Made by a program: the position numbers and the translations under genes. The notes below the pieces were generated by a model, which saw only the letters and a list, made by a program, of their open reading frames with translations, had not been told where the DNA came from and searched no databases. DNA of 45,204 bases from an uncultured Myxococcia bacterium (GTDB lineage Bacteria; CAZTWC01): assembly GCA_964617105.1 (NCBI GenBank), contig CAZTWC010000005.1, positions 1-45,204 of the forward strand, written 5' to 3'. This document shows positions 1,953-45,187 of this stretch, piece after piece. The first letter of the stretch is position 1, and each line of letters starts with the position of its first letter.

Positions 1953-1969
1953 TGCAATATACATACCAA
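1953..1969 (-). promoter_or_regulatory. sigma54 (-24/-12) promoter upstream of flgI
   Basis: Minus strand TTGGTATGTATATTGCA = GG-N10-GC, about 40 bp upstream of the flgI ATG. Confidence 0.7.
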
Positions 1970-2012
1970 CCTAACTCAAGATTGAGATCCAGGGGATTCT
2001 TTTCGTTCTTAC

Positions 2013-2741: not shown

Positions 2742-2810
2742 AATTCTTATCCTGCCAAATAATTCCCGACTTATCTCCGGGAGGTAATAGTTTTTTGGTT
2801 AACCTTTTTT

Positions 2811-3893: not shown

Positions 3894-3929
3894 TGCTCTC
3901 TCCTGTAACCTAATACCTAAAATCAGCAA

Positions 3930-4721: not shown

Positions 4722-4806
4722 AAATAACCTCCCTGGCAATTAATTGCCGGTAATAATCTCCTAAAACTCGGTTACCTAAACTCTAATACCGTTAACCATA
4801 CCTCTA

Positions 4807-5565: not shown

Positions 5566-5692
5566 GCATATCTCCTTGTAATTACAACATCTTATTGCAC
5601 ATCAACGCCGTCCAGGATTAAATGCTCTCGCTGTTTTCTATTGCTTTGCGCCATCAATCATGCTCCATCTGCTTCTCTGCCTAAATATTCGA

Positions 5693-5709
5693 TGCAATAT
5701 ATGTGCCAA
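5693..5709 (-). promoter_or_regulatory. sigma54 (-24/-12) promoter of the flgF operon
   Basis: Minus strand TTGGCACATATATTGCA matches the consensus TGGCAC-N5-TTGCW. Confidence 0.85.
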
Positions 5710-5859
5710 GCAAATGACGTGCCCCTTAACCTGCTTAGTTGATAAAAAAAATTTGATTATTATCTAACTTTTATGCTAGTGTAGTGACTTAAAATTATTA
5801 TTTAATGGTTTGCTTGTAAATTTTAGGCATAAATTTATTTGAAGGGAGTGATAATTACC

Positions 5860-6669: not shown

Positions 6670-6702
6670 ACCTTAGGGCTCCCTCAAGGGATCAACGCGC
6701 TA

Positions 6703-8672: not shown

Positions 8673-8837
8673 ACTTAAATCAATCTTTTAATCTCTGTGG
8701 TTTCCTTATAGGTAGATCTTAAACATAACAGACTACCAAGCGGTGTATTACCGAAAGTTATTTTCATTATTAAATAATTAAATGATATTGGGGAATAAAA
8801 GTCAACTAAAAACCAGTTGGGCAGGAGTTAATCCAAA

Positions 8838-9203
8838 TCAAGGAATAAACTTTTTTACCATGCTGATAATATCTACGTCATTGAAGGGCTTAACTATCCA
8901 ACCGTTAGCCCCAATTTTTTGAGCAGCCTTGATTCTATATAAATCGGATTCCGCGGTCAGCATAATCACCGGGACAAATTTCCATTTGCGCTCTTTCCTA
9001 ATCTCCGAAAGGCAGGTCTGCCCATCCATATTGGGCATATAAAGATCCATCAGCAGCAAGGAAGGCATGAAAGACTCCATTTTCTCCAGGGCTTCCAGTC
9101 CATCGGCAGCCTCCTCCACCTGGTAGCCAACCCGTTCCAGATACCGTTTCAACAAAACACGTATCTGTAACGAATCATCAACAATTAGTACTTTTAAAGC
9201 CAT
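8838..9203 (-). CDS. Single-domain response regulator (CheY-like)
   Basis: VLIVDDS, LLMDLYMPNMDG, VIMLTAE, GWIVKPF. Confidence 0.92.
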   Translation of the reverse strand: MALKVLIVDDSLQIRVLLKRYLERVGYQVEEAADGLEALEKMESFMPSLLLMDLYMPNMDGQTCLSEIRKERKWKFVPVIMLTAESDLYRIKAAQKIGANGWIVKPFNDVDIISMVKKFIP

Positions 9204-9246
9204 TGAAAATTACCTTTTTAGAGTAAATGCGCCCTATCTACAACCA

Positions 9247-25377: not shown

Positions 25378-28300
25378 TTATTGGCAACTAAAGTTGATAC
25401 ACAGCTGATTTTGAGGGCAATCTTCATCTCGGCGGCAGCCTGGCACACAGATGTGTTCTTGACAAATTTCACCGGCAGCGCATTGCCCATCGTTGACACA
25501 CTCTTGCAGTTTACACAGATTGTCACGGCAGAAGTATCCGGTCTGGCAGTGTGCATCCTGGGTGCAGTCAACCGCTTTGCATTTGGTGCTCTGGCACACA
25601 TGTTTTTCTGCACAATCCTGATCTACCCGGCATCCACTGCGGCATTGACCACCATCACAGATTCTTCCGTCTCCACAATCTTTGTCCAGCAGGCAGCCGG
25701 TAAAGACACACCGGGAACGCTGGCAGGAGAAATTTTCCGGGCAATCTTTAGAGGTGGCGCACTGAGCCGCGATACAGCCGCCATTTTCGCAAATTAAACT
25801 TGTTGGGCATTCCAAATCCTGCTTGCAACTTATCTGCTTACAGCGTCCATGCACACAGTCGTACCCGGTCTGGCACTGGCTGCGGTTCCGGCACTCTCCA
25901 GAACCACAACGACCTCCCTGACAAATCTGGCAGGAGAAGAAGTTACAGGTACAGTCGGTGTCACTCTGGCAACTGCTGCCAGAACCCACGCATTTACCAG
26001 TCACCGTGTTACAGGTATAAAACACCGGACAATCAGCATCGCTCTTGCATTGGTCCAGATTTTTACATTGCCCGCTGATGGTGTCGCAATTTTGGCCCGC
26101 AGGACAGTCAGCATTGCTGCGGCAACGGCCCTGGGGCAGGCATTGACCAGAAGCCACATCACACTTGAATCCCTGGGAGCAGTCGGTATCTTTGTAGCAG
26201 CCACCATCCGGCACACATTTTCCGCTGTTGGGATCACAAAGCTGTCGGGTGTCGCATTCGCTATCACCACGGCAGCCGGGTATGCAGGTGCCTGATTTGC
26301 AAAATTGCCCCTGGGGACAATTTTCGTTGATATGGCAACCCAGGCCAACGCAGTTAAAATTGTCGCAGTATTCGCCGCTATTACAGTCCACATCGGTAAT
26401 GCACTGAACTTGAACACACTTGTTGTTCTGGCAGACATTTTTTTCTGGGCACTGGGCGTTGGTGCGGCATCCGGCAGTACACTCACTGTTTTGGCAGATA
26501 AAGCCCTCTCCGCAATCTCCATCCTGGGTGCAGCCGCCTAAGACACATCGTCCACCTTTGCAAATGTAACCCCGTTGGCAGTTAATGTTACTCTGGCATT
26601 CTGGAGCGGAGCAATAACCGCCCTGACAGATGGTGCCGCCATCACATTCACTATCCTGACGGCAAGTTTTGGCTACGCATCTGCCCCGCTGACACTCCTG
26701 GCCGGCAGTACAATTGCTGTTATCCAGGCACTGGGGAGGAGAGCAGTTGTTTTCAATGCAGATGGAGCAGTTGTCACCCAGGCAGGGACAGTCTGTATCC
26801 TGGGTGCACTCAGGTCCTATTCCTTCACATTTATTGGTTTTGGTGTTGCAACGATATCCGGTAGGACAATCACTGTCGCTTTGACAAAATCCCTCTTGGT
26901 TTTTACATTGGCCATTCAGGATGTCGCAGCGCTGGCCCAGCGGACAATCCTGATCGCTTTTACAAGTGCCACTGGTGATACAATTGCCGCTTTTCAAGTC
27001 ACATTTTTCTCCGGTTTGGCAGTCATTGTCGCTCCAGCAACCGAAGTCGGCAATACATTTGCCATTTTTAACATCGCAGATCTCCCGCTGGCCACATTCA
27101 CTATCACCACGGCAGCCGGGCATACACTTCCCTTGAATATTGCAGAAGGTTCCGGCGGCACAATCGCTGTTGTCTTGGCACAGGGCGCCAATACACTGGT
27201 AATTGGAGCATACCTCGCCAGTTTGGCAATCGGTATTTACTTTGCACTCCACCGCCAGGCAACTGTTGTTTTTACAGATGCTCATCCCCTGACATTCGCT
27301 GTCACTGCGACAACCCAGAGCGCATAAATTTTTCAGACAGATCTGTCCCGGCGAGCAGTCGGAATCACGGCTGCAGCCGCCCAGGATACAGTTGTTGCCA
27401 ATACACTTTTCTCCGGTTTGACAATCGGAATTATCCAGACACTGCACTACCACGCACCGGTTGCTCTTACACAGAGCCAGGCCGGAGCAGTCGGTGTGAC
27501 GGCGGCAGCCAACCGTGCATTTGGCAGCAATGCAGATGAAACCAGAAGTGCAATCGGCATCACGTAGACAGCCGCCTTCTACACACTGGTAATTGATACA
27601 TTTTTTACCCTGGTCACATTCCGAATCGTTACGGCACTCTACGCTCTGGCAGCGGTATTGCAGACAAATTTCTTTGCCTGTACAGTCGCTGATGATCCTA
27701 CAGCCGGTGCGGCAGGTCCCACTCAGGCAGATCATACCGGTTTGACACTCCTGGTCAGTATTGCAGCCCCCCATTTTACAGGTATAGTTAACACATTTTT
27801 CTCCCTGGCTACAGTGGCTGTCTGCCGTGCACTCCACTGAGGTGCAGATATAGTTTATACAAGCCATTTGGGCCGGGCAATTGTCGGTAGCGCGACAGCC
27901 GGTGCGGCAACGTCCGCTCAGGCAGATTTCTCCCTGCGGGCAAGTGGAATCGCTGTAACAACTGTTGCCGTAGCATTGGTTTTTGACACAACTGTGATCG
28001 CTGGGACAGTCGCTATCATTACGGCAAGCCACCTGAATACAGCGTTGGTTCTGGCAGATAGACTTTTCCGGACAATCCAAATCGCCACGACAACCTACCT
28101 GGCAGCGGCTGGCATTGCAGATTTTGCCCTGGCCGCAATCGCTGTCCACATTACATTCCTCTACACAGGAATTGTTCAGGCAGGTCTGATTACTCAGACA
28201 GTGGGTATTGGTAGTGCATTCCACGGCCACGCAGCGTCGTCCGCTGCATATCTGCTTATCGCCGCAGTCCGAAAGGGTACGGCAGCCTGTTCGGCATTTG

Positions 28301-31300
28301 CCGGACAGGCAGATATATTCTGACTGGCAATCACTGTCTTTACTGCACTGATCGGAACAGAGATTGTTGCGGCAGATCTTGCCGTCAAGGCAATCACTAT
28401 TGGTCAGACAGTCCACTGAAACGCAGCGGTTAAGCCGGCAGAGCGCCCTGCCCTGGCAGTCTGTATTCTGGCGGCATCCTACAGTGCAACTGTTTTGGAT
28501 ACAGATATGACCAGTCTGGCAATCAGTATCTGCCAGACAGCCACCATCAACGCAGAAATAGTTTTTGCAGATCTTATTATCGCTGCAATCGTTGCTAGTC
28601 AAGCATTCCACTGGGGTACACTTGTTGTTGATACAGAGTGCTTTGCCCGAGCAATCGGTTTGCTGGCGGCAACCCGACTGGCAGATACTCTGCTGGCAAA
28701 TCTGACCGGTCTGACAATCGCTGTCAGCCAGACAGCCGCCACCCACGCATTGGTTATTCAAGCATTTGTGGCTGGTTGGGCATTGGCTGTCTTCCAGGCA
28801 TGAAACTGGATAGCACCGGTTGGCGGTGCAAAGGGCAATCACTGGGCAATCACTGGTGCTGCGACAACCCTCCTGGCAACTGCTGTCTAGACAGATTTGT
28901 CCTTTTGAGCACTGGTTGTCTTCAGAGCATTTGGCGTAAATACAGCGGTAATTCTGGCAAATAAAGCCCTGAAAACACTCACTGTCTTTTTGGCATTGCG
29001 GTCCTGTGCATATTCCTCCTTGACAGATGGCATCGCCGGGACAGTTGGCGTCACTGGTGCAGGTGCGCCTAACGCATCTACCGCGCTGACATTGATGAGT
29101 AGATGCGCAACCTAAATTATCAGTACATTGGGGAGCGGCACAGCGACCATTTTCACAGATGGAGCAGTAACTCATCTGACAGGGACATTTACTGTCATCA
29201 CTGCACTGCTGTCCAATCCCTTCGCATAGTCCGGTGGTGATATCGCAGCGTTGCCCCACCGGACAATCACTGTTTGCGGTGCATTTGCTGGATTTACATT
29301 TTTTGGTGAACATGTCGCATACAAAACCAGCGGCGCAGTCCTCACTGGTTTTGCATGAACCGCTTTGTAACACACACTTGCCACTGTCCAAATCGCAGCG
29401 TTCCTCTTGTTTGCAGTCGCTGTCAGCCCAACAACCGCTGTCGGGGAAACATTTTCCCGACGAAATATCGCATAGTTTTCGTTTGCCGCAATCAAAATCT
29501 TTTTGGCAACCGCCATCGGGTTTGCAGATATGGATATCCAGGTCGCAGACCTGCCGGCTCTGGCAGTGGGCATCGGTGGTGCAGTCCACCTTTTCGCATT
29601 TACCACTGCCCAGGTAGCAAATCTCCTGCTCAGCGCAGTCTGCATCTTTTTGGCAACCCTGGCTCAGGCATTTGTTGTTTTGCTGGTCGCAACGTTGATT
29701 GGCCAAACAGTGACTGTCCTGAGTGCACTCTACCGACAGGCACTTGTTGGCTGAGCATATTTGCTTTTCCTGGCATTGACTGTGGTCGCGGCAGCCAATC
29801 TGGCAAAGATTACTTTGGCAGATTTGTCCTGGTTGACAGTTATCATCGTTATGGCAACCTCCCTCTAAACATTTATAGTTAATGCAGCGGGCTGGCGGCT
29901 TGCTGCTGATGGGGCTGGCACAGTGACCATCGTTGGTGCACTGGACATCCTGGCAGCGACCGGTATTGAAATTGCATAACTGCTTTTCCAGGCAATCGCT
30001 GTCTTGTTTGCAGAAGGGGATGCATTTATGGGTAGTCATATTGCATCTCTGATCCTGGCTGCAGTGGAAGTCGGCATTACACTCTACCTGGTAACAACGA
30101 CCACTGTTTATCTCGCACAACTCCCGTTCTCCACAATCGCCGTTGCTCTGGCAGAAGATAGCACAGGTATAGGTAGCCATATTGCACTTGTTGCCTGCCG
30201 GACATTGGCTGTCAGTTTTACATTCCACGGCCAAACACTTGCCGTTTTGGCAGACCTCCCGTTCTTTGCACTGATCACTGCTGGTACAGTAGGGTATGCA
30301 CGTATAATCTTTCAAACTGCACTTTTGGGTGCCTCCGCAATGAGCATCGATTTTGCACTGTACCTGATAACACTTGCCGCTTTGAGTGTCACACAACTCC
30401 TGTTTACCGCAATCGCTCTCTTTTTCACAGCGCAGGCTGCATTGATGGAAGTTGGTATTGCAAATTTTGCCCTGGGGACAGTGACTGTTGGTTTTACACT
30501 CCACTGGGTAACACTGGTTTTGGGCAGTGTCGCACAACTCTTTTTCCTGGCAGTCGGCCTCAGTTTGACAGTAAGGTATACATAGATAGTTGGTGGTTTC
30601 ACATCGATATCCTTTTGGGCATTGACTGTCCTGGCGACATTCCACTACTTTGCATTTTCCCGTGTCAGTCTGGCAGATCTCTTTTTCACCGCAGTCGTTA
30701 TTGCTCTGGCAGATGTCAAGGCACTGGTGGAATTGCAGATCGCATTTTTTACCGGCCGGGCACTGGCCTTCTTTTTTACACTCCACCCGGTAACATTGGT
30801 GGATATTGTAGTTGCAAATCTCAAAATCGGAACAATGTTCATCACTGCTGCAATAGGGCTGGCAAACAAAATTCAAGCATTTGAAGCCAATGCCGCAATG
30901 CTCATCGAGTTTGCAGGCCACCCGGGAACAAATCCTGGTTTGTGGATCGCATACCTCCAGGGCCCCACATTGACCATTATTTTCACATCCCATAACACAC
31001 TTATTATCTTTACACACTTCGTTGTTACGACATTGACCATCATTGGTACAGGCATTTTCTTGACAGGAATAGTTCTGGCAGCGTCTATCCAACGGGCAAT
31101 CTTTATCTTCCAGACATTCCACCGGCCGGCATCGATTCTCCTGGCAGACCTCTTTTTCTTGGCACTGTTGGTTATCACGGCACCCCGTCTGGCAGGCGCC
31201 ATAGAGGCATATTTTGCCCTGGGAACAATCCTGGTCTTGACCGCACTTGTCTATCTGGCAGCGCCCATTCTCGCACCGGTATCCAGATGGACATTGACTG

Positions 31301-34300
31301 ACTCCTCCGCACTGGGCCGGCTTACAGATATCCTCCCGGCAAATCAGCCCCTGGCCGCAGTCTTGATCCTGGGAACATTTTTTCGGGGCACAGCGTCCCA
31401 GGTTACACTCCTGGCCAGGGCCGCAATTACCACCACCAAAACATTCCGGCTGGCCACATTGGCCGTTTTGACAGATCAAACAGTTGCCCATGAAACACGG
31501 GCAGCTTTTGTCGCTTTGGCAAGCAGGGCCGATACCAGTGCATTTACCGCTGCCAGAGTCGCAAGTTGATCCCATTGGGCAATCGCTGTCTTTTTGACAA
31601 CCCTCAATTTTTTTACACTCTCCTAAAAACAGGTCGCAGTGCGTTCCTTTTGGACATTCTTCATTGCTGCTGCATTTTCCTGAAGCAAGCAGGCATTTTC
31701 CAGTGGCGGTTTCGCATTTTTCACCCTCTTTACAGTCGCCATCTTGTAGGCAACCGGTATCTTGGAAACACTTGCCGCTGGATAGATCGCACCAGTAGCG
31801 TTGCTTGCAGTCTTCATCCTTTTTACAGCCCTCTTTAGGTATACATTGGCCACTCAGAAGATCGCAGATATGACCTTCACTGCATTCTGCATCGTCCATA
31901 CAGCCGCCATCCTGCTGGCATATATGATTCTGGATTTGGCAAACCTGCCTCACCGGACAATGGCTGTCTTGGCGGCATTCCACCGCCATACATTTGCCGA
32001 TTTTCAGGTCGCAGCCCTCTCTCTCTTTACATTCAATATCTTCCTTACAGCCCGGCTGGCAGGTCCCATTTTGGCAAAAGAGTCCGGCTGGGCACTCAGT
32101 GCTGCTTTGACATTTAGCACCCACGCAAAGATAGTCCTTACATTTCTCTTCTGGGCGGCAATGGCTGTCCTCCAGACAGGCCACCTCTTTACATTGGTAT
32201 TCCTGGCAGATAAAACGCCTCTGCCCCAGGCAGTCGGAATCGAGTCTACAGCCTACGCGGCATAGAGATTCCAGACAAATCTCACCCGACTGGCAATCGC
32301 TGTCAGCCTGACAAATAGAGTAGACACAGCGTTGGCTTTTACATAGAAAATCATTGGGGCAGTCGCTGTCTTGTCCACATTGGGCTTTGGTGCAGAGCAA
32401 GTTTTGACAGATTGCCTGGTCGCCGCACTCCTGGTCATTCTGGCACTTGCGGACTTCACATCTTCCATTTTTACAATTTTGAAAACTCTGGCAGTCATCC
32501 TGGTTGAAGCACTGGGGAAACCCGCATTTGCCCTTTATACAGATCGTACAGTTGGAAAACAGGCAGGGACAATCGGTGTCGTTATTGCAGGATGGACCCA
32601 CGCCCACGCATTTGCCCTGGCTGGTGTCGCAATTGGAGCCGGTGGGGCAGTCTTGGTTGGAACTACACTTGTCTGTACTGCGACAGGAGTTGGAAAGCAG
32701 ATCGCAGGTTTGTCCGAAGGGACACTCCTCATCGGTATTACACTGGCCGCTTAAATTGATACATTTTCCAGTCTCCAGTTCACATTTTTCTCCAGATTTA
32801 CATTCAGAATCTTTCCAGCAGCCGTTGTCTTTGAAACACTGATTAGAAGTTAGATCGCAGTGTTCCCTTTTCGAACATTCGCTATCTGATTTACAACCGG
32901 AATCCGCGATACACAGGTTATTCAACAGGTCGCATTTAAAGCCAGAGGGGCAGTCCTCTTTAACTTTACACTGCACACTTTTACACTCACCGCTCTCCAG
33001 ATCGCAGATCTCTTTTTCTTTACAGTCTATCTCTCCCCAGCATCCCTCGTCTTTGACGCAAATATGCAGAGCAATATTACACAAGTTACGATCCGGGCAG
33101 TGTTTATCTTCCCGGCACTCCACAGGTGAACAGGTTCCGGTAGGCAGATCGCAGATCTCCTTTTCAGTGCAGTCACTATCCTCCCAGCAACCACTGTCTT
33201 TAACGCAAAGATGAGTATTCAGGTCACACTGGTAACGCGCCTTGCACTCAGAATCATTTTTACACTCCACCTCTTCACATTTGCCAGTTTCCAGGTCACA
33301 AACCGAACTCTGGTTGCAGTCAGCATCCTCCCAGCACCCCTCTCCCCTCTGGCATTTGTTAGTGGCGGTATCGCAGTAATACCTGGTCTTGCACTGCTCA
33401 TCAGTTTTACACTCTACGCTCAGGCATTCACCAGAGGTCATCTGGCACATCGAACCGGTGTCACAATCAACATCGGCCCAGCACCCCTTGTCTTTGACAC
33501 AGCGGCTATTTTGGCAAATATGGCGAGTTTTGCAATCGCGGTTGTGGCTGCATTCCACTGGTTCACATAAACCTGTTTTTAAATTGCACCCCTCTTTGTC
33601 CAGGCAGTCCTGGTCAGATTTACAGCCCTCTTCTGGGCGGCAAACATGGGAAAAATCGCATTTATACCCGGCTAAGCAATCTGTATCGCTCTGGCACTGC
33701 TGCTGATAACATAAACCAGTAGCCTGGTCACAAATCTGGCCCGGGCTACACTCTTCCAGTTTATGGCAACCACTGTCCAATTGACACAGACCGGAAAAGT
33801 AATCGCAAAATTTACGGGCTCCACATTGAATGTTGGTGGTGCATCCCTTGTCTACAGTGCACATGCCGGATAACAGGTCACACCTTTTTCTGAAGGGGCA
33901 AGTAGCATCGGTTAAACAACCGCCGTCAGGCTCACATTTTTTGGTTTCTATCTGACATTTTTCCCGGTCAGAGCAATTTTTATCGGCATCACAGGACAGA
34001 TCTTCAATACATTTGCCGCCTATTGGTTCACATCTCTCCTTCTCCATACAATCGGAGTTTGATTTACATCCCTCACTACCCGGAAAACATAGTCCAGATT
34101 TAAGATTACAGATATTACGCGGCCCGCAATCATCATCACGCTGGCACCCGCTGTCAGAAGAGCATTTGCCACTATCCGGCAAGCAAATTTCCCTGGAGGC
34201 GCACTGATCTCCGGCCCAGCATCCCTGGTCGGAGAAGCAATAGGTTTGATTGGGTTCACAGATTTGACGACTGCTACAGTCGCTGTCCTGGCTACATTTA

Positions 34301-36081
34301 ACTCTCTCCTCACAGCTGCTGGTGTACCTGTTACAAACCTGATTGTCACTGCAGTCACCGTTGATTATACATTTTACTGGCGGCAAACACTGTTTTTGCC
34401 GGCAGACCCTCTTCTGCGAGCAATCTGTATCCAGATAACAGTCAGGCAGGGGCAGGCAGAAATTCTGGACGCAAAAGGAACCCGATTGGCAGTCTATATC
34501 AAAGTTACATTCTTTTTGGTGATCCGGTTTGCAGACGCCCAACAGGCATATATAGCCCTGAGTGCATTCGCTGTTGGCAGCACAGCCGGCGGGACGGCTG
34601 CATAGCCCCTGGTCGCATTGAAAGCCCGGTACTCGCAGGCATTCTCCCTGGTCGAGACAGGGGATATGGGGGGAGCATCGATAGTTTAGGCAACGCCAGT
34701 GTTTGTGGCACTGATCATCTTTTTGGCAGGATGGTGGTTGGCAAGTACCAAATTCACACTGCTCCCCGCTCTTACAGTCGGCATCACTAACACACTCAAA
34801 GGGAGCAATACAATAGTTGTCCACACAAAAAGCCCCTGGACAATCCCGATCTTCACGACAACCAGTCAGTCGCTGACAAATTCCCTCTTTACACTCGAAT
34901 CCCCTGGCGCATTCGCCATTATCCTGGCAACTGACCGGAGTGCATTTTCCACTCTCCAGGCAAAAATGGTTGACTGGGCAAGGATTTTTCTCTGAACAGG
35001 AGTTTACTTGGCAATAACCATCTTTACAGGTATATATTGAGGGGCACTCTCGATTATCTTTTCCTCCGCAAGCAAAAAGGGAGAAGCAAATACTCTCAAG
35101 ACATAATTGCCCCGAAGGACAATCCTGGCTCTGGCGACATAAATGCAAGGGAAGACAGCGGGATTTCTGGCAAAGATAGCCAGAGGGACAATCATCACTG
35201 ACATTACACTCATCGGGCAGGCATTGGTTCTCTTGACATTTAAAACCAGGAGCGCACTTACCATCTTTATCGCAGGGCTCGCTTTTTTGACATTGCCCTT
35301 TATAGCAGATATGCCCCTCCTGGCAATCAGCATCGCTGTAACACATAGGTTTGGTTCGGCAGGTGCCTTCAAAACAGATCTCTTCCGGCTGGCAATCGCT
35401 GTGTTGGCTGCAAGATGGCAGGCAATCCTGGTTCACACATTTGGTGCCACTGGGACAAGAGTCCAGGTCGCCACATTTTTCCCTCTGCTTGACGCACTTG
35501 TTCTGCAGGCAATCAAACCCCTCGGGGCAATCGTTTTCCACCTGGCAAGCATTGATTACACATTTACCCTTCAAGCATAAATACCCATCCTGACAGTCTT
35601 TCTCTTCCTGGCACTCAGCTTTGGGGACGCATATTCCTCGTTGACAGTCGTCTGTTTGGCTACAATCGCTGTTGTCAGCGCAAACCGTACCTTCTGGTTT
35701 GTAGACCTGGCAGTAGTTTTCCAGGCATATAAAACCGGAGTAACATTCATTTTTATCCTGGCATTTTAGTTTGCATATTTTGTCTACACAGTCCCAACCA
35801 GCGTAACAATCATCGTTTGCAGCGCAGGAAATTGGTTCTGACACACATTGGTTACCTACACAGTGCATTGAAGCATAACAGTCCCCGTCATCCTGGCAAG
35901 ATGCCGGTATTGGAACACAGCGACCGCCCTGGCAGGTAGTGCCGGTGAGGGTGGGCTGACAATCGCTGGCCAGTTGGCACTGTCTCGAGGCAATTTGTCC
36001 GCAGGCACTCAGCAAAAGGGCCAGGCACAGGCATAAAACCAATAGAGTAGTTTTAATGGTTTTTAACAAATAAGACTTCAT
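25378..36081 (-). CDS. Giant (3567 aa) cysteine-rich repeat lipoprotein
   Basis: 10.7-kb uninterrupted ORF, AAAGGA RBS, signal peptide ending LLSAC (lipobox), then continuous ~21-27 aa units C-xx-D-x-[DE]-C-x5-C-x4-6-C to the C-terminus. Confidence 0.93.
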   Translation of the reverse strand: MKSYLLKTIKTTLLVLCLCLALLLSACGQIASRQCQLASDCQPTLTGTTCQGGRCVPIPASCQDDGDCYASMHCVGNQCVSEPISCAANDDCYAGWDCVDKICKLKCQDKNECYSGFICLENYCQVYKPEGTVCADNSDCSQTDDCQRGICVPKAECQEEKDCQDGYLCLKGKCVINACQVENDCPEGFDCLQNKCVKQREKCGDLDSCPSGTKCVNQDCLPSCSQHSDCQPEEICFEGTCRTKPMCYSDADCQEGHICYKGQCQKSEPCDKDGKCAPGFKCQENQCLPDECNVSDDCPSGYLCQKSRCLPLHLCRQSQDCPSGQLCLESICFSLFACGGKDNRECPSIYTCKDGYCQVNSCSEKNPCPVNHFCLESGKCTPVSCQDNGECARGFECKEGICQRLTGCREDRDCPGAFCVDNYCIAPFECVSDADCKSGEQCEFGTCQPPSCQKDDQCHKHWRCLNYRCSPHIPCLDQGECLRVPGFQCDQGLCSRPAGCAANSECTQGYICLLGVCKPDHQKECNFDIDCQSGSFCVQNFCLPLPDCYLDTDCSQKRVCRQKQCLPPVKCIINGDCSDNQVCNRYTSSCEERVKCSQDSDCSSRQICEPNQTYCFSDQGCWAGDQCASREICLPDSGKCSSDSGCQRDDDCGPRNICNLKSGLCFPGSEGCKSNSDCMEKERCEPIGGKCIEDLSCDADKNCSDREKCQIETKKCEPDGGCLTDATCPFRKRCDLLSGMCTVDKGCTTNIQCGARKFCDYFSGLCQLDSGCHKLEECSPGQICDQATGLCYQQQCQSDTDCLAGYKCDFSHVCRPEEGCKSDQDCLDKEGCNLKTGLCEPVECSHNRDCKTRHICQNSRCVKDKGCWADVDCDTGSMCQMTSGECLSVECKTDEQCKTRYYCDTATNKCQRGEGCWEDADCNQSSVCDLETGKCEEVECKNDSECKARYQCDLNTHLCVKDSGCWEDSDCTEKEICDLPTGTCSPVECREDKHCPDRNLCNIALHICVKDEGCWGEIDCKEKEICDLESGECKSVQCKVKEDCPSGFKCDLLNNLCIADSGCKSDSECSKREHCDLTSNQCFKDNGCWKDSECKSGEKCELETGKCINLSGQCNTDEECPFGQTCDLLSNSCRSTDKCSSNQDCPTGSNCDTSQGKCVGVGPSCNNDTDCPCLFSNCTICIKGKCGFPQCFNQDDCQSFQNCKNGRCEVRKCQNDQECGDQAICQNLLCTKAQCGQDSDCPNDFLCKSQRCVYSICQADSDCQSGEICLESLCRVGCRLDSDCLGQRRFICQEYQCKEVACLEDSHCRPEEKCKDYLCVGAKCQSSTECPAGLFCQNGTCQPGCKEDIECKEREGCDLKIGKCMAVECRQDSHCPVRQVCQIQNHICQQDGGCMDDAECSEGHICDLLSGQCIPKEGCKKDEDCKQRYWCDLSSGKCFQDTGCLQDGDCKEGEKCETATGKCLLASGKCSSNEECPKGTHCDLFLGECKKIEGCQKDSDCPMGSTCDSGSGKCTGIGPACQSDKSCPCFMGNCLICQNGQCGQPECFGGGNCGPGQECNLGRCAPKKCSQDQDCGQGLICREDICKPAQCGGVSQCPSGYRCENGRCQIDKCGQDQDCSQGKICLYGACQTGCRDNQQCQEKEVCQENRCRPVECLEDKDCPLDRRCQNYSCQENACTNDGQCRNNEVCKDNKCVMGCENNGQCGALEVCDPQTRICSRVACKLDEHCGIGFKCLNFVCQPYCSSDEHCSDFEICNYNIHQCYRVECKKEGQCPAGKKCDLQFHQCLDICQSNNDCGEKEICQTDTGKCKVVECRQDSQCPKGYRCETTNYLCIPYCQTEADCQEKELCDTAQNQCYPVECKTNSHCPQGKICNTNFHQCSLRCEKESDCGKQELCDTQSGKCYQVQCKIDAHCGGTQKCSLKDYTCIPYCTSSDQCKEREVCQNGKCLAVECKTDSQCPAGNKCNMATYTCAIFCQSNGDCGERELCEINSGRCYQVECNADFHCSQDQRCNMTTHKCIPFCKQDSDCLEKQLCNFNTGRCQDVQCTNDGHCASPISSKPPARCINYKCLEGGCHNDDNCQPGQICQSNLCQIGCRDHSQCQEKQICSANKCLSVECTQDSHCLANQRCDQQNNKCLSQGCQKDADCAEQEICYLGSGKCEKVDCTTDAHCQSRQVCDLDIHICKPDGGCQKDFDCGKRKLCDISSGKCFPDSGCWADSDCKQEERCDLDSGKCVLQSGSCKTSEDCAAGFVCDMFTKKCKSSKCTANSDCPVGQRCDITTGLCEGIGQQCSDDSKCPCQMSYCSICENGRCAAPQCTDNLGCASTHQCQRGRCVRRTCTSDANCPGDAICQGGICTGPQCQKDSECFQGFICQNYRCIYAKCSEDNQCSKGQICLDSSCQEGCRSTSDCPVIALCTANRCYPVSCLEDSQCPTSHKCLNNQCVGGGCLADSDCQTGQICQQSICQSGCRQQTDCSGKALCINNKCTPVECLTSNDCSDNKICKNYFCVDGGCLADTDCQTGHICIQNSCTVGCRQNTDCQGRALCRLNRCVSVDCLTNSDCLDGKICRNNLCSDQCSKDSDCQSEYICLSGKCRTGCRTLSDCGDKQICSGRRCVAVECTTNTHCLSNQTCLNNSCVEECNVDSDCGQGKICNASRCQVGCRGDLDCPEKSICQNQRCIQVACRNDSDCPSDHSCVKNQCYGNSCYSDSTCPQGEICLSGRCRTGCRATDNCPAQMACINYICTSVECTADSHCSQGEKCVNYTCKMGGCNTDQECQTGMICLSGTCRTGCRIISDCTGKEICLQYRCQSVECRNDSECDQGKKCINYQCVEGGCLRDADCTSGFICIAAKCTVGCRRHTDCSGLALCKSNRCVVVQCLDNSDCQTGEKCIGNNCILGGCSRDSDCSPGQICLKNLCALGCRSDSECQGMSICKNNSCLAVECKVNTDCQTGEVCSNYQCIGALCQDNSDCAAGTFCNIQGKCMPGCRGDSECGQREICDVKNGKCIADFGCWSDNDCQTGEKCDLKSGNCITSGTCKSDQDCPLGQRCDILNGQCKNQEGFCQSDSDCPTGYRCNTKTNKCEGIGPECTQDTDCPCLGDNCSICIENNCSPPQCLDNSNCTAGQECQRGRCVAKTCRQDSECDGGTICQGGYCSAPECQSNINCQRGYICKGGRCVLGGCTQDGDCGEGFICQNSECTAGCRTNAQCPEKNVCQNNKCVQVQCITDVDCNSGEYCDNFNCVGLGCHINENCPQGQFCKSGTCIPGCRGDSECDTRQLCDPNSGKCVPDGGCYKDTDCSQGFKCDVASGQCLPQGRCRSNADCPAGQNCDTISGQCKNLDQCKSDADCPVFYTCNTVTGKCVGSGSSCQSDTDCTCNFFSCQICQGGRCGSGECRNRSQCQTGYDCVHGRCKQISCKQDLECPTSLICENGGCIAAQCATSKDCPENFSCQRSRCVFTGCLLDKDCGDGRICDGGQCRSGCRVDQDCAEKHVCQSTKCKAVDCTQDAHCQTGYFCRDNLCKLQECVNDGQCAAGEICQEHICVPGCRRDEDCPQNQLCINFSCQ

Positions 36082-36406: not shown

Positions 36407-37453
36407 TCAGGAATCAACAGTCTGGTAATAATTAGCTTTAATCAACTCATAAACCGATTTCGACAGCCAGGTCTGATTGATATACTGTGGGTATACTGCC
36501 AGCCTCTCCTTGAGGTGGCAGCCTATCTGGCGCAGGTATTTTTGCAAATCCTTTACCGTTGGCCAGGGGCTCTGGGGATTTATCTGGTCAGGATCAATGG
36601 CAATGCCTCCCAGGTCAGAAACGCCAGCTGTGATCATTTTTTGCCAGAATGAGGGTGACCATTCAATAAGATTGGGGGGGATCTGCACCGCTGGACCGGA
36701 CAGATGGTGTTTAAGCCTATAGTCGCTTACATAACTTATCAACTCCAGAATCTCTTCATCATTTAGCGGTATAGTCAAAGGCAGCCTGGAGTTTTGATTG
36801 GGCTTATAGGACTGGATAATAATCTCCTGCAAATGACCATATTGGCGATGAATATCCAGCAATCTCTCCAGAGAGTCAAAACGGCTCTCCCTGCTCTCCC
36901 ACATGCCAATCAGGATGCCGCTGGTAAAGGGGATTTTCAATTCACCCGCTGTTTTTATCATCTCTATCCGGGTGGCTATATCTTTTTGGGGATGCACCTG
37001 GCGGCCAAAATCAAAATCCAGATTTTCCAGCATCAGTCCCATGGAAGCGCAAAAGGGGCGCAAGAGTTGCAACTCCTCCTGGTTTAAAACTCCAATATTA
37101 ACATGGGGCAGCAATTTACTGACCAGGGCCAGTTTGCATATCTCAATGACATATTGAATCAAAGAGGTAAAACCATTTTTTTGTAATCTATCTACAAAAA
37201 GTTGGGAGCGCTCCGGCCTTTCACCACTCATAATCAGCACCTCTTTGGGTTTAAAGTTTTGATTTTGAACTGTTTTGTGAGATTTTAAGTCAAGGGCATC
37301 TTGCTTTTGCTCCAGGTTAAGAAAAATTTCCTTCACCATATCCATTTCTATCAGATCAACCTGATCACGGAAAAAACCACAGTAGAGGCAGCGGTTGGGG
37401 CAGAACCGGCTCACCACCAGGGTGATATTTTGACTATAGGTAATGGTTGTCAT
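36407..37453 (-). CDS. cofG: FO synthase subunit 1 (CofG-like radical SAM)
   Basis: ITYS.N...CPNRCLYC, LLPHVNIG, SMGLMLE, IPFTSGILIG, GHLQEIIIQ, QIPPNL, DLGGI...INP..PWP. Confidence 0.85.
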   Translation of the reverse strand: MTTITYSQNITLVVSRFCPNRCLYCGFFRDQVDLIEMDMVKEIFLNLEQKQDALDLKSHKTVQNQNFKPKEVLIMSGERPERSQLFVDRLQKNGFTSLIQYVIEICKLALVSKLLPHVNIGVLNQEELQLLRPFCASMGLMLENLDFDFGRQVHPQKDIATRIEMIKTAGELKIPFTSGILIGMWESRESRFDSLERLLDIHRQYGHLQEIIIQSYKPNQNSRLPLTIPLNDEEILELISYVSDYRLKHHLSGPAVQIPPNLIEWSPSFWQKMITAGVSDLGGIAIDPDQINPQSPWPTVKDLQKYLRQIGCHLKERLAVYPQYINQTWLSKSVYELIKANYYQTVDS

Positions 37454-37469
37454 CTCATCTCTATCTCTG

Positions 37470-38696
37470 TCAAACAGTTTCGAATCCCATTTTCCATATA
37501 TCTTTGATGGCAGTGAAGCAGTCTCCCCGGCGGCATACTATCTGGTTGTCAAATGGTTCAAATTGGTATTTTTTATATATATCTGCCACCTGTTGATAAA
37601 TTCTGGCCATGTAATTGAAAGATGGCGGCTGGCTTTGGGCGAGTTTGCTGCCCTTGATGGGCATAAAAGGGACTATAGAGGTATTTATCCCCATGGAGAT
37701 GGCCGATTCAGCGCCTTCAACAATAGATTCTGGATCCTCTCCCAGTCCGGCGATAATCATGGTACTCACCCGGCCGGGTCCAAACAGTTTTAATCCCTGC
37801 TGCCAATTTTTTTGATAGAGTTCCAGAGATAATCGTCCCTTGGCAGGCATCACCTGGCGCCGGAGTTTTTGGTCAAATATTTCAAAATTGCAAAACATCC
37901 CCTGATAACCACAGGCTTTCAATCTCTCCAGCCAGGTTAGCTCCTCAACCGCTTCAAAACCAGCCACCAGGAAAAAATCGTTTGAGCGCAAAGAGCAGGG
38001 TAACTCTTTGGCCGCTTCCACCAGTTGCCTGATTCCCTTATCTGGGCCAGGCAGGGTGGCAGTGTTGATCACCAGCCGCTGCAAAGGAATTTGTTTATCA
38101 TCAACCCCCTTCTTCTCAACTGGTGAGATCGTTTTTGCGGGAGAAAGCGTTTCGGTGGGAGAATCTGCTTCTGGCGGGGGGCGCCGGCCCCTTTTCCACC
38201 ACTGCCGGTGGCCGCAAAAAGCACACCCTTCTCCTCTCTGCTGGTAACAGCAGGCCAATTGCAAAGTGGTGCGGGCAGTGTCATACTCCATTTGAAAGAA
38301 GGGCCAGGGAGATTTTAGTTCCCTCTGCCGGTTTTCACCAGTGCTGGTTTCAGGCAGTCGGAAAGATGGCAGTCCTTCAAAGGATGAGCAAAAGCCAGGA
38401 TGTTGATTGAGAGCAACAAAATCACGGTTATGGCTGTTATCCTGGCAATAAACGATTTTCCAGCCTTCATGTTCAAGAAAAATCATTTTAAATGGTTGGT
38501 CATGGTGATGGCTGAAAGAGGTTAAGAGGGCTAAATTCGGTGAGGTCTGATCCGGTTCACGGATCTCGATTATCCCATTTAAAGGAGAGAGCCACAAAAC
38601 CGGCGGTTTCAGAGATGGATCATCGCTTTTAAACTCTGACGGCAAATATATGGTGCCCACCTGCAGGGCAACTTTTTTCCCCGCCAGAGTCAGCAT
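37470..38696 (-). CDS. Divergent radical SAM protein resembling the MSMEG_0568 / biotin-synthase-related family
   Basis: Atypical cluster motif CCYQQRGEGCAFC, T.TLPGPDKG, RRQVMPAKG, LFGPGRVSTMIIAGLGE, VPFMPIKGS.L...PP. ATG overlaps the cofH stop. Confidence 0.7.
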   Translation of the reverse strand: MLTLAGKKVALQVGTIYLPSEFKSDDPSLKPPVLWLSPLNGIIEIREPDQTSPNLALLTSFSHHHDQPFKMIFLEHEGWKIVYCQDNSHNRDFVALNQHPGFCSSFEGLPSFRLPETSTGENRQRELKSPWPFFQMEYDTARTTLQLACCYQQRGEGCAFCGHRQWWKRGRRPPPEADSPTETLSPAKTISPVEKKGVDDKQIPLQRLVINTATLPGPDKGIRQLVEAAKELPCSLRSNDFFLVAGFEAVEELTWLERLKACGYQGMFCNFEIFDQKLRRQVMPAKGRLSLELYQKNWQQGLKLFGPGRVSTMIIAGLGEDPESIVEGAESAISMGINTSIVPFMPIKGSKLAQSQPPSFNYMARIYQQVADIYKKYQFEPFDNQIVCRRGDCFTAIKDIWKMGFETV

Positions 38697-39847
38697 GCTA
38701 TGGGATCAAAAATAGTATACTGGGTGTCACGCCGGACCGGCTGCCAACCAGCTCCGGCGATAGCCTCAATCAACTTTTTCTCGGTCATCCCCTGGCTGTT
38801 TTGGCAACCGGCAGCAGCAGCAATCTCCTCCCGGAATAAGGTGCCGCCCAGATCATTGGCGCCCCAATTGATCGCTTCTAAGGCCCCATCCAATCCCATT
38901 TTGACCCAACTGGCCTGGATGCTGGCAATGGTGGCCACAAAAAATAAGCGACAATAGGCGATAAAGGTTAAAATTTCCTCCCGGGTAATCATGGTCTGGC
39001 ATCTATCCGCCAGGGGTGTTTGCCAGGGGATGAAGGGTAGCACCACAAATTCGGTAAAACCACCGCTATTTTCCTGGATACGGCGGATAATCTGCAGATG
39101 TTCCATCCGTTGCTCCCAGTTTTCCAGGTGACCTATCAGTATAGTGGCAGAGGAGGGCAATCCGGTTTTATGGGCCAAAAGGATGATTTTTTCCCAGGTT
39201 ATGCTGTCCAATTTTTGGGGGCAGATCTGTTGCCGCAATTGATCGCACAGAATTTCGGCCGCAGTGCCAGGAATACTCCCTAACCCTTCATTTTGTAAAG
39301 ACTTCAATACATATTCCACCCGGTTTAAATTATACCCGGCCAGGTGGAATATCTCCATGGGTGAGAAACCGTGCAAATGGAGTAGGGGAAATCGTTTTTT
39401 TATCTCTTTAACCAAATGACTGGCGGTTTTTAAATCCAGATGGGGATTGATACCGCTCTGCAGGCATACCTCCTGTAACCCAGTTTGGGATTCCAAAAGT
39501 GGTTTTGATTTTAAGACCGCTGATATTAAATCTAAAATTTGTTCCAAATCCAGGGAATAGCCCTGATTGCTGTCTAAGGGCCTAGAGAAGCCGCAGAAGG
39601 AACAGGTATAGAGACAGCGGTTGGTAATACTGATATTGATATTGTTGACAAATGAAACCCGGTTTCCCCAACGTTTTTGTTTGCAAGAGGCTGCCAGTTG
39701 CTGAAGATTGCCGATCTCTTCTGACATGATAGGATTTTCTACCAACAATTTTACCATATTGGACAATACTTTGTTGCAACTCTTGTTGAACTTTATATGG
39801 ATTCTCATTACAGTTGGGGCGATGCCAGGCTTATTTGCCGGCATCAC
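38690..39847 (-). CDS. cofH: FO synthase subunit 2 (CofH-like radical SAM)
   Basis: TNRCLYTCSFCGF, HLHGFSPMEI, SIPGTAAEIL, CPQK, GHLE, TEFVVLPF, IQASWVKMG, GANDLGGTL..E.I..AAG. True start may be 39757. Confidence 0.85.
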   Translation of the reverse strand: MMPANKPGIAPTVMRIHIKFNKSCNKVLSNMVKLLVENPIMSEEIGNLQQLAASCKQKRWGNRVSFVNNINISITNRCLYTCSFCGFSRPLDSNQGYSLDLEQILDLISAVLKSKPLLESQTGLQEVCLQSGINPHLDLKTASHLVKEIKKRFPLLHLHGFSPMEIFHLAGYNLNRVEYVLKSLQNEGLGSIPGTAAEILCDQLRQQICPQKLDSITWEKIILLAHKTGLPSSATILIGHLENWEQRMEHLQIIRRIQENSGGFTEFVVLPFIPWQTPLADRCQTMITREEILTFIAYCRLFFVATIASIQASWVKMGLDGALEAINWGANDLGGTLFREEIAAAAGCQNSQGMTEKKLIEAIAGAGWQPVRRDTQYTIFDPIAC

Positions 39848-39890: not shown

Positions 39891-40253
39891 TTATTTTTTG
39901 GGGTCAGCCAGTTTGACCTCTTTTTTGTGTTTGCAATCGCCCTTGCACTCACCTTTACATTCGCATTTGTGTTCGGCTGCTTTTTTATGCGGGCATTCCC
40001 CTTTTGCTTTTTTGCACTTACACTCGTGCTGCTTAGCCTCTTTTTTGTGTTTGCAATCACCCTTGCACTCACCTTTACATTCGCATTTGTGTTCGGCTGC
40101 TTTTTTATGAGGGCACTCACCTTTTGCTTTTTTACATTTGCACTCGTGATGCCCGGCACCAGACGTATCTTTATCACAGGCCAGCGATTGGCTTATATTG
40201 GCAGTCATCATTAAAAATACGATGGCCGCTAAACAAACAAGTATTTTTTTCAT
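39891..40253 (-). CDS. Secreted small Cys/His/Lys-rich metallothionein-like protein with an internal duplication
   Basis: Signal peptide MKKILVCLAAIVFLMMTANISQSLA; the 95-aa mature part has 15 Cys and 9 His with CxC motifs. AGGAG RBS. Confidence 0.8.
   Translation of the reverse strand: MKKILVCLAAIVFLMMTANISQSLACDKDTSGAGHHECKCKKAKGECPHKKAAEHKCECKGECKGDCKHKKEAKQHECKCKKAKGECPHKKAAEHKCECKGECKGDCKHKKEVKLADPKK
39917..40148. repeat. 120-bp period tandem duplication within the metallothionein-like gene
   Basis: 39917-40028 versus 40037-40148: 7 differences, all synonymous in the 39891..40253 frame. Confidence 0.93.
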
Positions 40254-41739: not shown

Positions 41740-43350
41740 TTAACCAAAGGTTATTACATTTTTAATAGTTTGCAGTAGTACGGTTGGGGAGAAAGGCTTA
41801 TGCAGAAAGGGAATATTCTTTTGTTCAATAACGGAGATCATGGCTCTTTCGTCAGAGTAGCCACTAGTTAGAATAACCGGCATCAACGCATTTTTTTCAA
41901 GGATATACTCTATAACCTCTACTCCGTTTTTATCGGGAAGCACCACGTCACTGAACACCAGATCAAAATCACCCTCTTTCTGGTTGAACATTTTGATGGC
42001 ACTATCAGCGTTGTCGGCTTCAAAAACCTGGTACCCGTTTTCAGTAAGCACTCGAAATATAAATTTTCGCACCCGATTATCATCTTCTACCAGTAAAATT
42101 TTCTCCCCATTACCAATCAAGTTTTTCATCAATTCGGAATCATCAACATCATCTAATACTGTCGGTAATTCCGATTCTATTGGCAAAAATAGATCAAAGC
42201 AGGTGCCTTCACCTAGAGTGCTTTCTACATGAATTAATCCTTTATGCTGCGAGATAATGCTATAAATTATAGACATTCCCAGCCCGGTTCCTTTGCCAAT
42301 TTCCTTGGTGGTGAAAAATGGCTCAAAAATACGTTCTCTGGTGTCCTTGTCCATGCCCTCGCCGGTATCTTTAACAGTGAGGTGAACATATTCATCCACC
42401 TTATCCTGCTTTTCATCTTGATCTTCTGGGGTTAAACTTGGCTGCTTAAGTTTTTTAAACGCAGATAATTGGTTAAATTTTACCTGTTCAGATTTAATCA
42501 GCAACTGACCGCCTTCAGGCATGGCATCGCGGGCATTTATAGCCAGATTCATAATCATCTGCTCCATCTGGCCCAGGCCAAATTTGAAGCTTTCAATTTT
42601 TTCATCGCACTGAACCTGCAATTCAATATTTTCACCAATGGTCCGGCGCAGCATCTTTTCCATATCTCTCATCATTTGGGGTAAATTAACCATGATGGAT
42701 CTAATTACGTGTTTACGGCTTAGAGCCCGGAGTTGCAGGGTAAGAGCGGTGGCTCTATCTCCCGCTTTACGGATTTCGTTGAGATCACTTTGTACGGGGT
42801 GCTGTTCGTCAAGGCTGTAGCCTATTAACTCGCAATATCCATTTATGGTCATCAGCAGGTTGTTGAAGTCGTGGGCTACCCCTCCAGCCAATCGGCCCAG
42901 AGCATCCATTTTTTGCGACTGGTATAGTTGTTCCTGCAGTTTTTGTTTTTCCAGTTGCATTTGCTTACGTTCATAAGCATATTGGATGGATCTTTTTAAA
43001 AACCGTTTATCTATTGATTTTTTAACCAGATAGTCCTGGGCTCCTTTCTTTACCGCAATGATGCCTAAATTTTCATCGTCCTGACCGGTGAGTACCACTA
43101 CGGCCAAGTCAGGTTTGACCTGTTGAATCTGGTCGAAAGTGTTAATACCTTCACTGTCCGGCAAACCCAAATCCAGCAATACCACGGAAAAGTCGCTTTG
43201 CATTAAAGTCCGGAGTCCCTCTTGCAGAGAAGTAGACCTATAGAGTTTGAACAGTCCTTTCTTCTCAGCCTTTTTCAGCATGACTTTGATCAACAATGCA
43301 TAATCATCGTCATCTTCGATTAGTAACAGTTTCTTTATATTGTTAACCAT
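41740..43350 (-). CDS. Cytoplasmic hybrid histidine kinase (REC-HisKA-HATPase-REC)
   Basis: [59 protein letters not shown]-terminal REC. Confidence 0.95.
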
Positions 43351-43436
43351 GATAAAATTAAAAAATTATAAATTAAAATAAAGAATCGGAACAAAGGAGA
43401 AAATGGGGTTGATTTGATAATTGGCTGCAAAGAGCC

Positions 43437-43802
43437 TCAGTTTCCCACTAAAATTTTAACAGTTTGAATAAGTTCATCTTTATTAAAAGGTTTTATAATC
43501 CAACCTTTAGCCCCGCCTTTTTTCCCCTCATGCATCATTTGGTCGCTGGACTCAGTGGTTAGCATCACTACCGGAGTAAATCGGTGGGCAGGCATTTTTT
43601 TGATTTCGCTCAACAGAGCGATGCCGTTCATTTTGGGCATATTAACATCCAGCATAATTAATTCAGGTACGTAGGTGGAAAGTATTTCCAGGGCTTCCGG
43701 ACCATCTGGAGCCTCTTTTACTTCGTAGCCGCCTACTTGTAAAGTTAATTTTACCATCGCCCGCAGAGAGGGCGAGTCATCCACAACTAATACTCTCTTC
43801 AT
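43437..43802 (-). CDS. CheY-like response regulator
   Basis: MKRVLVVDDSPSLR, DVNMPKMNG, FTPVVMLTTES, GAKGWIIKPF. ATG 43802 follows GAGGA. Confidence 0.92.
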   Translation of the reverse strand: MKRVLVVDDSPSLRAMVKLTLQVGGYEVKEAPDGPEALEILSTYVPELIMLDVNMPKMNGIALLSEIKKMPAHRFTPVVMLTTESSDQMMHEGKKGGAKGWIIKPFNKDELIQTVKILVGN

Positions 43803-43818
43803 TGATTTATCCTCTGTC

Positions 43819-44478
43819 TTAAAATAGGGTGACTCCCTTTTTCTTTTCACTGTCAAACTGGAGACCGAAATGTTTAGAAAAAACCTTTTGTTCTTCCAGG
43901 TGGGTATATATAGTTTTGATTTTTTGCTTAATCTCCTCCATTTGATCACTCTGATTTAGTAAGGTCTTCAATTCCTTCGGATCTATGGGGTGGCCATTTA
44001 GATTGTCCAGCAACTCCAACACTTTAATTGTTCGCTCGAGCCCTTGCCTGATGCGATCGTTATATTGAAGTTCTAAAATAAGTGGTTCAGTAAGCCCCAT
44101 AATCATATCTTCTTGTTTACCAATACTCTTCATGCTCTGGTAAAATTTTTCTACTTCCTGCCCGGTCATGTCTTTCGGGTGGCTATTGTCTTCAAGTTGA
44201 GTTGATTTGTTTTCGCCCAGGTAATCTTCTACCACCACCTGTAATTTTTTAACAAAATTTTTATCAATATCACGGTGAGCATAGACCTTGGCCATCATAT
44301 CTTCCACATTTTTTTTATGGACCGCTACACTTTTATACAGTTTAGCAATGGTTTCAAATACCCGGTTGGTTTCGTTTTCGATTCTGGACGCCAGAGTCTG
44401 TAGTTGCTTTTTGAGCAAGGTGACAACTTGGTAGTTAATGGCAGTGATTTCTTTAAACTGTTCTTCCATAATGTTCAA
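43819..44478 (-). CDS. Helical chemotaxis-associated protein with LQ[FY]xDxxxQ motif (CheZ-like / truncated MCP-like)
   Basis: LQYNDRIRQGLE, C-terminal GVTLF, immediately upstream of the CheY-like gene. Start may be ATG 44469. Confidence 0.6.
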   Translation of the reverse strand: MNIMEEQFKEITAINYQVVTLLKKQLQTLASRIENETNRVFETIAKLYKSVAVHKKNVEDMMAKVYAHRDIDKNFVKKLQVVVEDYLGENKSTQLEDNSHPKDMTGQEVEKFYQSMKSIGKQEDMIMGLTEPLILELQYNDRIRQGLERTIKVLELLDNLNGHPIDPKELKTLLNQSDQMEEIKQKIKTIYTHLEEQKVFSKHFGLQFDSEKKKGVTLF

Positions 44479-44707
44479 CTTTATATAGAGATGGAAATAA
44501 TAATATCATTAAATAGTACCTGCTATCGATACTCAAATAATATAACTATAACTTAAAGAGTTTGTCAATTCTTTTGGTAAAATTAACCAGCCCGGGCAAG
44601 ACTTTTAGCCTTTGAAGAAATATTTTTCTTGCCAAATAACTTTGCAATTATTATAATTATATAAGATTTGCTTTTCTCGAAAGCGGTTAATCCTTAAGGG
44701 GCTGTCT

Positions 44708-45187
44708 GTGAAAAAAATATTAATAGTAGATAACGAAGAGATACTGCGGCTTGCTGTAAAAAAGAATCTATCTCAGATCGGTTACCAGGTTTATGTTGCA
44801 TCCAATGGTCAGGAAGGGTTTAAAATATTTCAGGAAAAAAAACCTCAAATGGTTATTTTGGATCTGAAGATGCCAGTTATGGGCGGACTTGAGGCTTTGC
44901 AGAAGATCAAGAAGATAAGTCAGGAAACAGAGGTAGTAATCATAACCGCTTTTGCCGATATGGAAACCTCTATTCGAGCGATAAAACTGGGGGCATTCGA
45001 CTATATACAGAAGCCAGTAGATTTTGAACAACTTGAGATTGTGATCAGCCGGGGGTTTGAGAGGATAGAGATGCGGCAAAGATTGGCAGACCAGGTAATT
45101 CAATTAGAGAATGCCCTGGCTCAGCGAGATCAAGCGATACAACGGCGTATAAAGGGTGTTGAAAAGCACCAAATCCATTTCGACTAA
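44708..45187 (+). CDS. Response regulator: REC plus short coiled-coil tail
   Basis: ILIVDNE, ILDLKMPVMGG, VIITAF, GAFDYIQKP. GTG start. Confidence 0.88.
   Translation: MKKILIVDNEEILRLAVKKNLSQIGYQVYVASNGQEGFKIFQEKKPQMVILDLKMPVMGGLEALQKIKKISQETEVVIITAFADMETSIRAIKLGAFDYIQKPVDFEQLEIVISRGFERIEMRQRLADQVIQLENALAQRDQAIQRRIKGVEKHQIHFD

Follow-up and report, generated by a model that had tools for sequence, protein, structure and literature searches.

In a 45,204-nucleotide stretch of DNA from an uncultured Myxococcia bacterium (contig CAZTWC010000005.1 of assembly GCA_964617105.1, positions 1 to 45,204; hereafter the window), the genes for the two subunits of the deazaflavin FO synthase are separated by a third, atypical radical S-adenosylmethionine (SAM) gene, here called X, and the same cofH–X–cofG order appears on a metagenomic contig from another lineage. 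CofH cleaves tyrosine and places a p-hydroxybenzyl group onto 5-amino-6-ribitylaminouracil, and CofG cyclises this adduct to yield FO. The synthesis of FO has been viewed as a closed two-enzyme problem with two known fates for its product; the locus described here adds a conserved third radical SAM partner, and neither fate was found in the genome. We favor, at roughly even chances, a reading in which the operon encodes a real FO synthase and X contributes a third radical step linked to the same pathway, the product being FO or, more likely, a modified deazaflavin.

The three genes are co-directional on the minus strand, in the order cofH–X–cofG. The cofH-like radical SAM gene (38690..39847, minus strand; protein P0001) has a longest open reading frame (ORF) of 385 aa, and its stop overlaps the start of X by 7 nt (ATGCTGA, 38690..38696, minus strand), a translational-coupling junction. 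X (37470..38696, minus strand; protein P0002) encodes a 408-aa variant radical SAM protein with a CX8CX2C motif and an N-terminal domain of ~136 residues. A purine-rich spacer of 16 nt (37454..37469, minus strand) separates its stop from the start of cofG (36407..37453, minus strand; protein P0003, 348 aa), which encodes FO synthase subunit 1. These exact coordinates, taken from the ORF list, bear out the tight coupling that an earlier note on this DNA had described, and the locus is a three-gene operon. Both junctions were spanned without differences by contigs from public DNA runs of two studies (runs X1, X2, and X4 for the overlap; X1, X2, and X3 for the spacer); one of these runs may be the window's own source. 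Two studies contributed the metagenome runs, marine and seawater, in which the DNA was present. A scan for promoters and terminators at the operon gave no clear signal, and nothing around it came close to any Rfam gathering score. The longest cofH ORF opens with a GTG codon and shows homology from about residue 40, while the gene-caller record (P0155) is a 345-aa form starting at the ATG at 39727; the true start is likely the ATG at 39757 or 39727.

The closest other match to P0002, P0006, is 40% identical to it where the search matched the two, and 36% identical when the full-length proteins are aligned pairwise. Scanning metagenomes with an alignment of both yielded a single contig, L027 (1538 nt; 57% G+C). 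On it, the C-terminus of a CofH (frame 3) is followed after 22 nt by the P0006 gene, which overlaps by 4 nt the N-terminal part of a CofG that runs to the contig end. The last 33 residues of the CofH fragment match the C-terminus of P0161 at 30 of 33 positions (E = 6e-9 to P0164 and 7e-5 to P0156), from which we infer that P0161 comes from a lineage related to that of L027. P0161 is a 342-aa CofH that passes both CofH cut-offs (437 bits against 374.1 and 433.6 against 426). The CofG N-terminus shares 36% identity with P0003 (E = 2e-24) and 53% with P0292. Judged from these sequences, the tightly coupled cofH–X–cofG order recurs in a second, divergent lineage, which answers the earlier note's doubt that the triad might not be conserved in other genomes. 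Because this order was kept even though X diverged to 36% identity, conserved-order logic ties X functionally to the FO synthase.

Both outer genes belong to the FO synthase families. P0003 carries the CX3CX2C motif and passes both CofG equivalog models (NF004884, 299.7 bits against a cut-off of 209; TIGR03550, 267.4 against 213.35). It keeps 49 of the 51 columns that are ≥95% conserved in CofG, where the minimum among 62 other CofGs is 47, and its end branch measures 0.84 against a median of 0.33. By descent it looks like an FO synthase subunit and an ordinary CofG. P0001, whose translation also contains the CX3CX2C cluster motif, passes the CofH-family subfamily model TIGR00423 (319.8 bits; cut-off 260.25), and its nearest database relatives are 39–45% identical. 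Eleven related CofH proteins scanned on TIGR03551 scored 437–503 bits in ten cases and 405.2 bits in the eleventh (P0163), and are by these scores genuine CofH or fused CofGH proteins. In two maximum-likelihood trees, P0001 fell within the CofH clade, split from the MqnC/MqnE-type rows with Shimodaira–Hasegawa-like approximate likelihood ratio test (SH-aLRT) supports of 99 (28 sequences) and 95 (8 sequences). The CofH nearest to it is P0161, at 45% identity; the two are sisters in the best tree with a support of only 13.7. The 10 rare residues that they have in common do not exceed the control maximum of 12 and so give no sign of triad-specific residues. Of the 79 columns that are ≥95% conserved in CofH, P0001 retains 71 (the minimum in 82 other CofH proteins is 74); R70I and N73S, next to the cluster motif, are among the changes. 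On the models and trees, P0001 is an FO synthase subunit by descent, a divergent CofH that is probably active. The outer genes are thus CofH and CofG, as the earlier note had called them, and the MqnC/MqnE identity that it had held open for the CofH-like gene is not what the classification returned. The same classification was mixed in its detail: CofG stands above its equivalog cut-offs, CofH stands above the subfamily cut-off and below those of the equivalogs, and X stands below the cut-offs of both TIGR04043 and NF045502. A separate CofH form came to light alongside: P0233 and ~60 similar proteins of 611–616 aa are CofH proteins with an N-terminal extension of ~235 residues and are abundant in marine metagenomes. 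P0233 was found on 192 contigs from sources including Tara, and its extension has no NCBIfam match, all hits beginning at residue 234 or later.

We then placed the operon in its genome, for which the window is one contig (C5) of a 4.07-Mb assembly of 489 contigs that is 96.49% complete, so that the absences given here are limited by incompleteness. Across the whole genome, the CofH-family and CofG models each matched a single gene, and these two genes are those of the operon. The earlier note had offered repurposed CofG/CofH paralogues as an alternative; this does not fit, because the operon copies are the only ones found in the genome. RibD is present (364.9 bits; cut-off 156.35), and the CofH substrate is therefore available. 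According to the review PMC8498797, FO either becomes the head group of F420 or is used by photolyases that bind it. For the former, CofE and CofD were not found in the genome, CofC gave only a 31.4-bit match (cut-off 105), and Fno gave only 28.8 bits (cut-off 149.8). For the latter, none of the photolyase domains PF03441 (FAD_binding_7), PF00875 (DNA_photolyase), and PF04244 (DPRP) was found. The absence of cofC, cofD, cofE, and photolyase genes that had been remarked on for the window thus extends to the whole genome. The Ddn-family profile PF04075 was uninformative, as it matched nothing in any control genome. No known FO user or F420 tail enzyme was found in the genome, and neither use of FO could be assigned. 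Three genome searches for kin of the source genome returned none closer than the same domain, and its lineage may be represented by few or no further species in the genomes searched.

The middle gene had been likened to MSMEG_0568-type enzymes, an assignment that did not hold. TIGR04043 (MSMEG_0568) is the best NCBIfam match of X, yet the score of 131.4 bits is less than half of the cut-off (303.7) and covers model positions 108–343 only. On the variant radical SAM domain NF045502, X missed narrowly (113.1 bits; cut-off 125). Among 17 scanned relatives, 15 pass this model (P0007 to P0028 and P0005, with P0018 counted as a pass), and P0006 fails it at 116.5 bits. Against Pfam at E ≤ 0.001 X had no match, PF04055 included. 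An exhaustive HMMER scan with X over 1.84 billion representatives returned 766 matches at E ≤ 0.001 and 4 at E ≤ 1e-30, P0002's own record among the latter. X is thus an intact radical SAM enzyme of a very rare clade, with P0006 as its sole close relative. P0002 and P0006 pair as sisters in the family tree (SH-aLRT 99) and lie in one half together with tandem pairs from Chloroflexota (SH-aLRT 95), away from the TIGR04043-passing proteins in the other half. The CX8CX2C motif (C149, C158, and C161) is invariant in 75 family sequences, E272 and K286 are further invariant positions of the family, and X keeps all family-invariant residues. The RadicalSAM.org paper (PMC9477430) counts CX8CX2C megaclusters among the variants. 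X therefore resembles MSMEG_0568 in superfamily branch, CX8CX2C motif, and a similar N-terminal domain, and differs from it in score, in its separate clade, and in having none of the Nit1C partners nearby. The C-terminal Cys motif found in true members is, moreover, incomplete in X, and P0006 has none of that motif's cysteines. The three CX8CX2C cysteines are the only ones conserved between P0002 and P0006, which would make an auxiliary cluster, and hence sulfur insertion, unlikely.

The AlphaFold2 model of X (predicted local distance difference test score 80.9, predicted template modelling score 0.87) contains a radical SAM barrel and an N-terminal beta domain. By its three-Cys motif and the partial triosephosphate isomerase barrel of this model, X is a member of the radical SAM superfamily. 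Foldseek, VIA-align, and a PDB profile search all returned generic small-molecule radical SAM folds. The solved-fold matches had overall Z-scores of 14–18, with LIAS/LipA at 18.2 and 17.6, MqnE at 17.4, and BioB at 16.4, together with HydE, NifB, PylB, HydG, NosL, and ThiH; the sequence-profile matches among PDB entries were ThiH, BioB, LIAS, MqnE, and HydE. A search of the ESM Atlas with X gave generic radical SAM clusters only. The fold of X is thus that of the small-molecule radical SAM group, which includes CofG and CofH, and does not give the reaction. Although lipoyl synthase, BioB, HydE, ThiH/HydG, and PylB are its best fold and profile matches, they share only 11–17% identity with it, and no auxiliary-cluster cysteines are conserved in the clade of P0002 and P0006.

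The next relatives of X, found by a search with a family alignment, were 16 loci from metagenome-assembled Chloroflexota genomes (L011–L026), 14 of which carry two tandem copies. These pairs form the clade nearest to P0002 and P0006, share the CX8CX2C motif, and sit in a cofactor-type gene context; they differ in being two paralogues accompanied by prenyltransferase, methyltransferase, and molybdoenzyme genes. A UbiA-like prenyltransferase gene precedes the tandem radical SAM pair in 13 of 16 loci, and a UbiE-like methyltransferase gene follows it in 11 of 16. Molybdopterin oxidoreductase genes (10/16), NrfD-like genes (6/16), and iron–sulfur protein genes of the DsrO/NrfC-like type (5/16) were also present, upstream of the pair in the annotated loci. 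The conserved cluster (for example L011:1851-11102 and L015:1556-9957) includes a CISM-type molybdoenzyme with iron–sulfur and NrfD-like subunits and a FixC/GG-reductase-like or FdnI-like protein. None of five Chloroflexota host genomes had MqnA/MqnD or a MenD above its cut-off, and the cluster may make a prenylated quinone-like cofactor by an as yet undescribed route. This context hints that the X-type CX8CX2C branch acts on aromatic cofactor head groups. In whole-genome samples, matches to the X family were found in 3 of 41 and 6 of 401 genomes, none of them an X of the triad type; apart from the self-match (839.6 bits), the highest score was 115 bits, and the short flanks contained no CofG or CofH. 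A pattern search of genome contigs with P0002 alone gave 48 matches and no relatives. The 14 long family members examined carry GNAT or ATP-grasp domains as fusions; in none was CofG or CofH the fusion partner.

How X might act can be sketched from these observations. CofH would form the hydroxybenzyl adduct from tyrosine and the RibD-derived substrate, CofG would close the deazaflavin, and X would perform one extra 5′-deoxyadenosyl-radical step, either on the CofH adduct or on FO. The conservation in X of the SAM-cluster cysteines only would favor hydrogen-atom abstraction leading to C–C bond formation, rearrangement, or dehydrogenation over the insertion of sulfur. The resulting FO or, more probably, modified deazaflavin would be neither extended to F420 nor bound by a photolyase, and would serve a client of another kind. 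Compared with the known CofG/CofH FO synthase, which is fused as FbiC in Actinobacteria, the outer genes match by hidden Markov model, tree, motif, and conserved columns, with RibD present in the genome; the differences are the third radical SAM gene between the subunits in two lineages, a CofH below its equivalog cut-offs, and a genome in which neither F420 tail genes nor a photolyase was found. More tentatively, and as a possibility to which we give less than even weight, cofH–X–cofG could be an ancient three-enzyme unit for a previously unknown deazaflavin-derived cofactor or chromophore, with an unrecognised client in marine bacteria that lack F420 and photolyases. If this is true, the locus would hold a new deazaflavin and the first function for a branch of uncharacterised CX8CX2C radical SAM enzymes. 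A literature search that left most subscription journals and supplementary files outside its scope found nothing published on the chemistry of MSMEG_0568 enzymes, the Chloroflexota cluster, or a cofH–radical SAM–cofG triad.

Several observations weigh against a third radical step in FO synthesis. Two radical SAM domains, those of CofG and CofH, suffice for FO synthesis, as stated in PMC8498797. We infer the role of X in the pathway from gene order alone, and the triad is known from two instances, of which the second is a 1.5-kb fragment with partial cofH and cofG. No CofG or CofH gene lies within ~8 kb of the X relatives in any of the 16 Chloroflexota loci, indicating that the family is not tied to FO synthesis in general. 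Moreover, P0001 falls below both CofH equivalog cut-offs (TIGR03551, 346.4 bits against 374.1; NF005609, 360.6 against 426) and its end branch is the longest in the tree (1.79–1.81 against a median of 0.29–0.51), so that its activity could differ from that of canonical CofH; the length of this branch (1.8) also makes its exact position within the CofH clade unsure. Part of this evidence would suit a plain two-component FO synthase, with X a passenger or part of an unrelated pathway and ordinary FO as the product, perhaps released or bound by an unrecognised FO-binding protein. The sufficiency of two domains, the conserved residues kept by P0001 and P0003, and the Chloroflexota relatives without CofG/CofH all agree with it. 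However, the same order and tight coupling are found in two lineages despite the divergence of their X proteins given above, a distance over which a passenger should hardly have remained between the subunit genes; X also keeps every family-invariant residue and has a confident predicted fold. We consider this explanation unlikely, if far from negligible. The divergence of P0001 would instead suit a CofH and CofG that have been repurposed and, together with X, make a non-deazaflavin aromatic cofactor, for example a quinone-like head group. P0001's subthreshold equivalog scores, its long branch, and its eight changed columns of 79, R70I and N73S included, point in this direction, as do the absence of a known FO user from the genome and the UbiA-like and UbiE-like genes beside the sister clade of X. 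Against them stand the ordinary partners in both lineages: P0003 is above the CofG cut-offs, the L027 CofH fragment matches the cut-off-passing P0161 at 30 of 33 residues, and the L027 CofG fragment shares 53% identity with P0292, an ordinary CofG. P0001 is, furthermore, nested in CofH and not in a separate clade, and RibD supplies the usual substrate. Repurposing is accordingly quite improbable in our estimate.

Two further identities can be set aside with much greater assurance. P0001 does match MqnC (290.2 bits) and MqnE (269.8 bits). Both are radical SAM enzymes of the CofH family that, like CofH, assemble the aromatic head group of a cofactor in consecutive radical steps, and the locus could on that account be part of futalosine menaquinone synthesis. 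These scores are far below their cut-offs (428.1 and 434.55, respectively) and below the CofH scores of the same protein, P0001 lies outside the MqnC and MqnE clades, and the genome contains neither an MqnA/MqnD domain nor a second CofH-family gene. We rejected this identity on scores, trees, and the lack of MqnA/MqnD, and give it next to no probability. X could likewise be a member of the MSMEG_0568 family whose Nit1C-type cluster lies here by chance, as TIGR04043 being its best NCBIfam match might suggest. The score of X against the TIGR04043 cut-off and its position in the opposite half of the tree led us to reject this identity too, and no genome protein exceeds the TIGR04043 cut-off. As the earlier note had also observed, the Nit1C partners are missing: no nitrilase, GNAT, or AIR-synthase-like gene occurs among the 21 window ORFs scanned with Pfam, a set that left out the ORFs of positions 1–9246. 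This explanation, too, is extremely improbable.

The operon has several neighbors of other kinds. Upstream, cofH adjoins the gene for P0276 (39891-40253, minus strand), a secreted-looking protein of 120 aa with two 40-residue repeats rich in Cys, His, and Lys, which looks like a metal-binding protein. Its gene contains a 120-nt tandem repeat with a 93% match, and the contigs of runs X1 and X2 jump 120 nt within it (39939 to 40060); a one-repeat allele of P0276 therefore exists in the population. P0275 (40257-41300, minus strand) is a predicted lipoprotein of 347 aa whose C-terminal tail is rich in Cys; it belongs to no family in Pfam or NCBIfam. Downstream of cofG, across a gap of 325 nt, lies a giant ORF of 3567 aa (25378-36081, minus strand) with a G+C content of 0.49–0.52, above that of its surroundings, and DUF7107 as its sole Pfam match (140.6 bits). 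A two-component cluster at 41740-45187 encodes at least two stand-alone receiver proteins and a 536-aa hybrid histidine kinase that has a receiver domain at either end.

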